Origin: an uncultured Candidatus Saccharibacteria bacterium
GTDB taxonomy: Bacteria > Patescibacteriota > Minisyncoccia > Phycocordibacterales > UBA2100
Direction: 5' to 3'
Assembly: GCA_964534465.1 (NCBI GenBank)
Contig: CAZHOB010000002.1
Coordinates: forward strand, 29,725-93,724
Length of the DNA stretch: 64,000 nt
In this document: one piece after another, positions 57,001 through 60,000 of the stretch
Layout of the letters: each line of letters opens with the position of its first letter
Numbering within the stretch: position 1 is the stretch's first letter
Position numbers: made by a program

Positions 57001-60000
57001 TGGTTCGTCACTATAGTGACACTGGCTTTATAGACCGGCCGGACTATAAGGAGGTGTATCTCATCCCATTGCATTTCGGCGTGAGCGACGAGTACTTCTC
57101 CAGGATCGTCAATAGTTTTCAAAAATGATCTTTGACTATTAGCCCAGCATTCATGTAATGTAGCCTCTATGGACGATAAAATAATTAAAAGTGAGCAAAA
57201 AAAATTGGTAGACAAGGCCGCGGCTGAATTCGGATCAGTTCACATCGCGGAAAATTTTGCCAAATATACTTCGAGACAAGAACTCAGTAGATTTTTGTTC
57301 CGGCACGATCTCTATAAAAAAATCATTCACACCAAGGGATCCATCGTTGAGTGCGGTGTATTTCAGGGGGGGGCTTGCTGTCGTGGGTAAAATTGTCCGA
57401 CATCCTAGAACCGACGGCATTCAACAGGCAGATTATTGGCTTTGACACATTTGAAGGTTTCCCGAGCGTCCACGCCAATGATAAGAGTACTCGAAAGGCA
57501 AAGGCCGGTGATGTTGCGTTTACAGGATTTGAGGACATCAAGAACGCGATCGCTTTTTCAGATAAGAATGCTCTCCTGCGTCCCAAACCAAAAGGGATCT
57601 TGGTAAAAGGGGATTTTATGGAAACGGCAGCGACGTTTCTCGAAAAAAATCAACATCTTATCATATCGCTCTTGTATTTGGATTTTGACATATACGAACC
57701 GACCAAAAAAGCTCTTGAACTTTTCCTTCCGCGCATGCATCGCGGATCAATAATTGGATTCGATGAGATAAATAACACCTCTTGGCCCGGCGAAACCCTC
57801 GCGGTCATCGAAAAGCTTAATATACGCGATATCGCAATAGAAAAGTTTGACTATGAACCGCACATGGCATATGCAGTGCTGAAATAGGAATTGAAGCTCG
57901 AATTTTTTGCTTTTTGTGATAGCGTGGCTCTATGAAGGGACTATTTGTGGTGCAGCGCCAGTTCGTCATCATGGGCCATCAGCTTGCGATCCTCCTCAAG
58001 GAGCAGGGTGTGGTTGATCAATTTTGTGCCTATATCCAGATCCGCGACGGATACAAATTACTTGCTTCCCAAAAAGACGTCACCTATTCATCCCTTTTGC
58101 TCGACGAGGATATCGTTAAACAAGCGTCGCATGAAAAGGTCGATCTCGAATATCTTCGCTCGCTAGAAAAGGATATCGGCACATTGTGGAAATACATTGA
58201 AGTCGATCGAATTATCCGCCACGGACAGGGCGTGAGGGAGTATCCCTACGATAGGTCGCCGTACACTCATGAGCAGATCCTGCAGATCGTCCAGACGATG
58301 TCGAAGCGGATAATTTCCATGCTCGATCAGGAAAAACCGGATTTCATGTACATGTATCAGCCGGGATTTCTGGGCGGTTATCTGGTATATGGCATCGCGA
58401 AAAAACGCGGGATCCCTGTTTTCCTGCAGGAGGGTCCTTCTGTCAAAGATCTTGTCGTACTGAGCGACACCTACAAGACGCTTACGGACGTGGATAAAGT
58501 TTTTCACGAAAATCTGAAAAAAGAACCGAATGAGATCATCAAATACGGCGAAGCTGCTGAATATGTGGATGCGTTCAGAAATAAACCGTTCGCATATTCT
58601 TCTATAGCGGGCTCGCGCGAAAAGCGTGGGCGTTTGCAGCAGTTCAATTTTTTGAAGTTCCGCAATATTTTTTTCTCGATCTACTTTAATTTTTTTCAGA
58701 CATTTCTTCGGTGGCTTGAGAGTGGGGAAAAAAAGACCGATTATTCCACGATCAACCCGTTCCTTCATCTCTACGATCGTGCTTTGCGCAAGGCGCGCAA
58801 TCTGATCGGCTTTTCCGATCTTTTGGACTCGTATGATCCCCTGGCCTCGTATGCGTATTTTCCGCTTCAACACGAGCCTGAACTGAACTTACTCCTCAAT
58901 GCGCCGTTCTCCTGTGACCAGATCGAAGTCGCGAAACGCATCGCGCGATCGTTGCCGGTGGGTATGTTTCTCTACGTGAAGGAACATCCTGATATGGTCC
59001 CGTATCGCCCACGCAGTTTTTACAAAATGTTGAAAAAGATACCAAATGTGCGATTGATAGATCCAGCAATATCGGGTTTTAAAATGGAAAAAAACGCGAC
59101 CCTGATCATGACTATCAGCGGTAGCGCAGGATGGGAAGGAGCGCTCCTCGGCAAGCCTGTCATCGCCTTTGGAGAAACTTTGAACAACACGCTATCCGGC
59201 GTCTATTATTCGAAAACGCCGGAAGATCTTGCTGGCCTTATAGAGCACGCACTCGAAAAAGGCGGGTGCGACCGTGAGGAGGTTGTTCGATATCTAGCCG
59301 CACTTCTCGAAGAAGGCGCGATCTCAAATTTCGGTTATCTCTGGGAAAATGAATACGACGTAGCAAAGAAAAAAGAAGGCCTTCGGGGCCTCGCTGAAGT
59401 GTTAGGCAAAAAGGTCCGCCTTTTGGCAAAATAGGATCTCATGAACAAAAAAGTCGCAGTCGTCATTCATCGAATAGAAGCCGTCGGTGGTGCGCAGCGG
59501 CTTGTATTGGATCAGATGCGGGAGTTGGACAGGCGCGGTATAGATGCGGAGCTTTTTGTATTAAATCGGAAATCGACCGAGGGGACATTGATACCGGTGC
59601 GATCCGTTCTCGATATACGGGGTATCTTTGCGCTTGCCAGAGCGCTGCGCGGACATGATGTCGTGCTCACGCACATGTGGTTTGCAAATACGGTCGGTCG
59701 TATCGCAGCTCTCATCGCTCGTGTGCCGATGATCGCGGCATTTGAGCTCGATTTCGTCAGGCCTGACGTGAAGACGCCAAAAATGCTGCTCGTGGACAAG
59801 ATCTTGCAGTATTTCTCTACGGTCATCGCGTGCTCACAGCAGACGCAAGATTCTCTTGCGGCGCACGGCATTCGATCGGTATTGGTCATCAATGGGCTCG
59901 ATTTCAAGCGCATACGCGATCTTCCTCCAGCGGATCTTTCCGCCTATGAAAGGCCCATATTCCTTGCGGCAAGTCGGCTCATACATCAGAAAGGTTTGGA

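Follow-up and report, generated by a model that had tools for sequence, protein, structure and literature searches.

Within the 64,000-nt stretch of an uncultured Candidatus Saccharibacteria genome analysed here, which we call the window, a sugar O-methyltransferase gene is divided into two overlapping open reading frames (ORFs), ORF1 and ORF2, at a run of eight G residues (G8; 57366..57373, + strand; Table 1). We propose, with a probability of roughly 0.55, that this G8 is a slipped-strand contingency tract, that is, a reversible on/off switch, and that the consensus sequence records the switch in its OFF state. The anatomy of the break, the conservation of the tract, the purifying selection acting on the gene and the occurrence of both ON and OFF alleles among homologues support this reading. 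In the proposed mechanism, a CalS11/TylF-type enzyme dependent on S-adenosylmethionine (SAM) would methylate a nucleotide-activated sugar bound for the surface glycan of the island in which the gene lies. The three-glycine SAM-binding loop of the enzyme would be encoded as an uninterrupted poly-G run, and this run would gain or lose a single G by slipped-strand mispairing during replication. G9 would then give the full enzyme (ON), while G8 would bring translation to a stop after 73 codons (OFF). The tract would act as a heritable and reversible switch for one methyl decoration, with the sampled population mostly OFF. That the switching rate in this organism is a useful one, that G9 is the active form, which sugar serves as substrate and that switching brings a benefit, such as escape from phages or predators, are all parts of the proposal that we infer.

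As assembled, the gene contains no uninterrupted methyltransferase frame, and translation ends at 57390. The GTG at 57351 is merely the mechanical start of ORF2. When the gene was rebuilt in silico with several tract lengths, substitution of G9 for G8 resulted in a single 239-aa ORF (...ECGVFQGGGLLSWVKL... / ...IVECGVFQGGGLLSWVKL...), and the G7, G8 and G10 rebuilds did not restore the frame. The initial annotation of the window had expected either G9 or G6 to restore the enzyme. This holds for G9, whereas the G6 rebuild, although also in frame, has one glycine fewer (FQGGLLSW) and does not give the sequence that was quoted for it. The same annotation placed the break exactly at the G8, and the positions of the ORFs confirm this. 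Specifically, the tract covers codons 66–68 of 239, and it shows what is looked for in a contingency locus: a homopolymer of at least seven nucleotides inside an ORF, at which a change of one unit toggles the product between full-length and truncated. Neither promoter-like nor terminator-like sites were found within 56900..58100.

Against the Pfam profile TylF (PF05711; cut-off 23), the repaired (G9) protein reaches 40.3 bits, and it also matches Methyltransf_24. Its closest solved structure by sequence is CalS11, a thymidine diphosphate (TDP)-rhamnose 3'-O-methyltransferase (expectation value, E, 6e-32; residues 25–227), and the alignment is ungapped over the tract, with ECGVFQGGG pairing gaplessly with EFGVRFGRH of CalS11 and with ECGVFSGNG of the homologues. 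Because of this ungapped alignment, the tract can be assigned to the Gly-Gly-Gly codons of the SAM-binding motif I (E-C-G-V-F-x-G-G-G). CalS11, which belongs with TylF, MycF and NovP to the family PF05711, has both motif I (E-x-G-V) and a YLDFDLYEPT segment in common with the repaired protein, and the LLYLDFDIYEPTKKALE segment is conserved. PF05711-carrying homologues of the repaired protein number in the thousands. In line with the initial annotation, which had described the two ORFs as the halves of one TylF-type methyltransferase collinear with an intact paralogue elsewhere in the window, the repaired protein aligns with that paralogue (32% identity, E 3e-23) without interruption across the junction. 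With a profile score above the cut-off, a glycine-rich motif I and a collinear full length, the repaired protein has the features of the family, and the split gene is predicted to encode a TylF/CalS11-type class I SAM-dependent sugar O-methyltransferase. The likeness to CalS11 further suggests that methylation may take place at the level of the nucleotide sugar. CalS11, TylF, MycF and NovP differ from the present enzyme in their setting, since they tailor antibiotic sugars whereas the split gene lies in a cell-surface glycan island, and we know of no mutable tract in their genes.

The G8 tract is more than chance, as judged by the depletion of such runs, by codon rarity and by conservation in relatives with saturated synonymous sites. 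A simple model of base composition predicts about one G8 per 64 kb. G/C runs are depleted in the window, which contains four G6, two C6 and neither a G7 nor a C7, and the G8 is its sole G/C run of at least seven nucleotides. Across the 48 genes of the window, GGG is the rarest glycine codon (14%), and GGG-GGG is found at only one of the 84 Gly-Gly codon pairs. Additionally, none of the seven other Gly-Gly-Gly triplets in these genes forms a run.

When the repaired protein was compared with 5.8 billion proteins, only three relatives above 62% identity emerged, and all of them are short or split: the window's own ORF2 (P0001) and two proteins of 178 aa (P0002) and 169 aa (P0003). Among 185,579 species-representative genomes there was no close relative, the best match being 61% identical. 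The close relatives make up three lineages with amino acid identities of 77–80%, all split at the same codons. The contig L003 (GCA_964553985.1) carries a G8, whereas L001, which is identical to L002 over 1398 nt although the two come from separate Joint Genome Institute (JGI) samples, carries a G7. Each member of this clade is exactly one G short, the window and L003 requiring G9 and L001 requiring G8, and addition of one G brings all three genes to exactly 720 nt with no other indel or stop. Between the three lineages, the proportion of synonymous differences (pS) is 0.82–0.90, which is saturated, and that of nonsynonymous differences (pN) is 0.11–0.19, with a pN/pS of about 0.13–0.22; these values hold in both halves of the gene. 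Of the codons encoding the same amino acid in all three lineages, only 41/158 (26%) are identical throughout, both GGG codons being among these, and the codons flanking the tract differ between lineages at nearly all third positions. Because the GGG GGG codons are kept despite saturated synonymous sites and the rarity of GGG, the tract is maintained by selection, and because both halves are under purifying selection, the gene is not a decaying pseudogene. The comparison of homologous loci, which the initial annotation had set as a test of its claim, therefore gives a divided answer: the three closest lineages share the disruption, as a fixed pseudogene would, whereas purifying selection and the lack of other indels argue against decay. 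In L003, both flanking genes stand in the same order as in the window (upstream 58% and downstream 66% identity). The split orthologue of L001 (1..6286) is located outside a glycan locus and is flanked by a Ku-like and a TraD/coupling-protein-like gene, which suggests that an integrative or conjugative element carries it.

In the wider family, a motif scan located 58 of 80 homologue loci from species-representative genomes. All 58 of these intact homologues have the motif G-x-G (often GGG) written in mixed codons, with a longest G run of 2–6. Because 58/58 intact homologues have runs of at most six, a G run of at least seven accompanies frame instability. Metagenome contigs were scanned with a frame-blind DNA pattern (ECGVF, one codon and at least six G), and most of its 58 matches were chance occurrences or canonical TylF genes with an in-frame G6–G8, which were left out of the tract-bearing lineages. 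In viral contigs, the same pattern matched only a single phage TylF gene, whose G6 is in frame and which is not relevant here. The independent tract-bearing lineages number nine, with tract lengths of 7–9. Two are in frame (L102 with G9 and L104 with G8) and seven are OFF. Six of the lineages are one G short, namely the three of the window's clade together with L110 (identical to L121), L127 and L137, each with G9; one, L109 with G8, is two short, needing two more G to match the family motif length (or one fewer, at the cost of one Gly); and none is too long. All three frame states thus occur in nature. L102, L110, L127 and L137 share 70–75% mutual identity and 41–46% identity to the window, and they lie within a large, otherwise intact clade; this second clade likewise shows saturated synonymous sites and purifying selection. 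The separate tract-bearing lineages are 41–53% identical to one another, and their distribution suggests that the tract arose independently in several lineages at the three-glycine motif. L104 (oriented copy) has a second run, a G9 at 1582..1590, which seems to lie immediately ahead of a CapD-like polysaccharide gene encoded on the other strand and may be a promoter or 5'-end tract.

Several observations weigh against a contingency tract. No tract-length heterogeneity was seen across three same-strain assembly pairs (window/L143, L001/L002 and L110/L121), and such agreement speaks only to the stable majority state. All three lineages of the window's clade are OFF in the same frame state, with no ON allele; six of the seven OFF lineages are exactly one G short; and the chance that at least six of nine lineages fall in one named state is, by our own arithmetic, about 0.04 (binomial). 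ON and one-too-many states should be more frequent if the tract switched freely, and we regard the skew toward one-short alleles across lineages as suggestive but not decisive. Furthermore, the G8 is a single long G/C tract in 64 kb, unlike the situation in organisms with many contingency loci. The phase-variable switch of the initial annotation is thus sustained as far as the selected tract and the in- and out-of-frame alleles among homologues are concerned, whereas the same-strain assemblies lend it no heterogeneity; likewise, of the Campylobacter-style mechanism that it invoked, one tract in a glycan gene is present but a set of many switchable genes is not.

The G8 might be an artefact, the true tract being a G9 in an intact gene whose G run was under-called. 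The OFF alleles do all lie below the in-frame length and none above it, which is the direction expected of under-calling, and caution over the lengths of G-tracts in databases has been urged (PMC9187656). Nevertheless, two assemblers both yield G8. The Logan contig L143 (run SRR8931233, 1839 nt) is 100% identical to 55650..57488 of the window, G8 included; it may share reads with the deposited assembly, and its identity excludes an assembler slip rather than a read-level bias. It was retrieved with the 317-aa neighbour alone, and look-ups with P0001, ORF1, PseB and the 500-aa neighbour returned no other independent same-strain assembly. Among the 61 homopolymer runs of the window (54 A/T runs of at least seven and 7 G/C runs of at least six nucleotides), 47 lie well inside intact long ORFs, so that indels at homopolymers are not a general problem of the assembly; specifically, the other homopolymers of 7–9 nt leave their ORFs unbroken. 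Assembly error is thus an unlikely source of the G8. The contigs of the relatives (1.4–6 kb) look, from their sizes, like short-read assemblies, and tracts of G8–10 length are reported to be accurate on Illumina (PMC6321876). Additionally, the G7 was seen in two separate samples (L001 and L002), and the in-frame G8 (L104) and G9 (L102) alleles are properly assembled. On this evidence, we consider under-calling very unlikely. We likewise give almost no credence to a two-piece enzyme, in which ORF1 and ORF2 would each give a polypeptide of its own, through translational coupling or re-initiation close to the end of ORF1, and the two would associate as a functional methyltransferase. In the window, the ORF2 frame does have a TTG (57393) 2 nt past the ORF1 TAA (57388..57390), but L001 and L003 do not share this layout of stop and start, for which reason the split two-subunit enzyme was rejected; moreover, the division would run through the glycine loop of SAM-binding motif I, and a cleanly separated gene pair is found in no relative.

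Programmed recoding would require that the one-short genotype be stable and selected and that either RNA polymerase add a G on the C8 template or the ribosome slip by −1 on G_GGG_GGG; the cell would then hold a fixed low dose of the glycan-methylating enzyme rather than an ON/OFF switch. To our knowledge, a poly-G recoding signal, whether slippage or an unstimulated −1 shift, is not established for bacterial chromosomal genes. All three lineages of the clade, although they diverged long ago and have tracts of G8, G8 and G7, are one G short with ORF2 in the −1 frame, and this state recurs in three of the four tract-bearing lineages of the second clade. The protein that a −1 slip on the run would yield is precisely that of the G9 rebuild, and the purifying selection seen in the two halves fits with its production. 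G_GGG_GGG in the window and G_GGG_GGC in L003 formally match the slippery pattern X_XXY_YYZ, although the A_GGG_GGG heptamer of L001 lacks a strict fit. As in the homopolymer recoding of insertion sequence (IS) elements, dnaX and herpesvirus thymidine kinase, a homopolymer here joins overlapping frames whose relation is conserved in relatives. In the herpesvirus gene, low-level compensatory frameshifting occurs on a G run (PMC5009743), and by analogy a similar low-level leakiness is possible. However, in the cited work on bacteria, productive transcriptional slippage occurs on A/T runs (PMC1088944, PMC3711429), and G_GGG_GGU is the weakest of 64 heptamers in E. coli, at 0.018% (PMC4066793). 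The present site has no stimulatory element: a conserved or stable downstream RNA structure is lacking (z-scores −0.49, +1.05 and +1.16, with an unfavourable alifold covariation term), the synonymous sites around the tract are not conserved beyond the Gly codons, and no Rfam family matches within 56900..58100. The existence of in-frame (L102, L104) and two-short (L109) alleles also argues against recoding, which we consider unlikely. It is doubtful, too, that the G8 is an ordinary loss-of-function mutation at a non-adaptive mutational hotspot, that is, a recent or recurrent pseudogene with no selected switching. Such a hotspot would be consistent with the broken state of seven of the nine tract-bearing lineages, with the rarity of tract-bearing members against thousands of intact family members, with the location of L001 outside any glycan locus and with the intact paralogue in the same island. 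A merely deleterious run, however, should be broken by synonymous changes, as in the 58 intact homologues, whereas the tract is kept in all three clade members over saturated synonymous divergence, with the rarest Gly codon used twice. None of the seven broken alleles carries a secondary lesion, pN/pS is about 0.13–0.25 in the C-terminal halves, which would go untranslated, and the gene order is kept in L003.

The contingency tract that we favour has precedents. Contingency loci of this kind, with a poly-G in the gene of a glycan-modifying methyltransferase, are already known, and well known in Campylobacter, whose core phasomes include SAM-methyltransferases with G8–10 tracts (PMC6321876). 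As in the poly-G genes for capsule and flagellin glycans of Campylobacter, the present tract is an intragenic poly-G of 7–10 residues, toggled by one G, that lies in the 5' third of a gene for a glycan-modifying methyltransferase and in a locus with pseudaminic-acid genes, and it is conserved among homologues at variable length (PMC6321876). Unlike that low-GC, host-adapted pathogen, the present organism is uncultured and has a GC content of about 51%, with a single tract over 64 kb, no ON allele seen in its own clade and a switch predicted from sequence. A second parallel comes from a non-pathogen, the commensal Bifidobacterium, in which pilus genes have conserved G-tracts with a reference state of OFF; in the sortase-pilus G-tracts of Bifidobacterium breve, which vary by replication slippage, two ORFs are likewise linked by a conserved intragenic tract that is out of frame in the database sequence, and the ON state is confined to a fraction of the cells (PMC9187656). 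Those tracts, G10–12 in a pilin gene, have been confirmed by error-corrected deep sequencing (PMC9187656), whereas the tracts described here are G7–9, lie in the cofactor-binding motif of an enzyme and are read from sequence. What is less ordinary in the present case is the uncultured host, the position of the tract in a cofactor-binding glycine loop with its recurrence in separate lineages, and the conservation of the OFF state at one G short.

The whole window (1..64000) forms one glycan-biosynthesis island, and the initial annotation was right to place the split gene within such an island, as pseudaminic-acid genes and others are present (Table 1). Besides the genes tabulated, the island holds a DegT/PseC-type aminotransferase, a cytidine monophosphate (CMP)-sugar synthetase-type gene, many GT4 glycosyltransferases, ATP-grasp enzymes, further methyltransferases and a GNAT gene. 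By this context, the product of the methyltransferase gene is predicted to act on a surface structure. The gene downstream of the methyltransferase could be subject to polarity when the methyltransferase is OFF. The GC content falls to 0.45–0.47 over 54001..58000, which spans two DegT-like genes and the split methyltransferase gene, compared with 0.515 for the window, and this dip may mark a horizontally acquired module.

Table 1. Coordinates of the split methyltransferase gene, its paralogue and other genes of the island within the window.
Feature	Coordinates	Strand	Remarks
ORF1	57169..57390	+	73 aa: 68 N-terminal enzyme residues (to ...ECGVFQGG), 5 out-of-frame codons (ACCRG), TAA
ORF2	57351..57887	+	178 aa, −1 frame relative to ORF1; C-terminal 171 residues (LLSWVKL...AVLK) from the tract on
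Whole gene, predicted TylF/CalS11-like nucleoside diphosphate (NDP)-sugar O-methyltransferase	57169..57887	+	239 codons with G9; frameshifted as assembled (G8)
Intact paralogue, TylF-family	47518..48174	+	218 aa; motif GVFKGTG, without a G tract
Upstream gene, DegT-like, pyridoxal phosphate (PLP)-dependent (PF27889 PLP_IMCC1989)	56175..57128	+	adjacency kept in L003
Downstream 500-aa gene	57932..59434	+	weak Capsule_synth-like Pfam match; position kept in L003
PseB	38109..39098		
PseI	39128..40174	−	
Heptosyltransferase with ADP-heptose epimerase	30512..32649		
MsbA-like exporter	33355..35214		
Split transketolase subunits	23427..25068	−	

Several further genes of the island deserve mention. 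A 439-aa ORF at 4560..5879 combines an N-terminal HAD-IIIA phosphatase-like domain with a UbiA-family domain, and the best match of the latter is decaprenyl-phosphate phosphoribosyltransferase (E 8e-59), an enzyme type linked to arabinan synthesis in mycobacteria. Two fusions are unusual: one of 948 aa at 6954..9800 (− strand) joins a NodU-like carbamoyltransferase to a C-terminal class I methyltransferase domain, and one of 651 aa at 1564..3519 has a GT4-like domain behind an incomplete NDP-sugar dehydrogenase domain. The UDP-glucose dehydrogenase at 27633..29021 has its best named homologues in Patescibacteria (Liptonbacteria, Paceibacterota), at no more than 58% identity, the nearest unnamed one being 68% identical; the source organism appears to be sparsely sampled.

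The excess of one-G-short alleles offers a concrete lead for poly-G recoding. In several separate lineages, the Gly-Gly-Gly SAM-binding loop appears to have become a mutable poly-G, which matches the route proposed for the origin of phase-variable loci in Campylobacter, in which "three consecutive glycines become 9Gs" (PMC6321876). Metagenome annotation presents genes of this kind as pairs of short ORFs or as pseudogenes, and glycan-modification capacity is under-called as a result. If the tract does switch, one methyl decoration of a complex surface glycan, a plausible target of recognition by phages or grazers, would be varied, and the contingency-locus strategy of Campylobacter, Neisseria and Haemophilus would be at work in an uncultured environmental bacterium.

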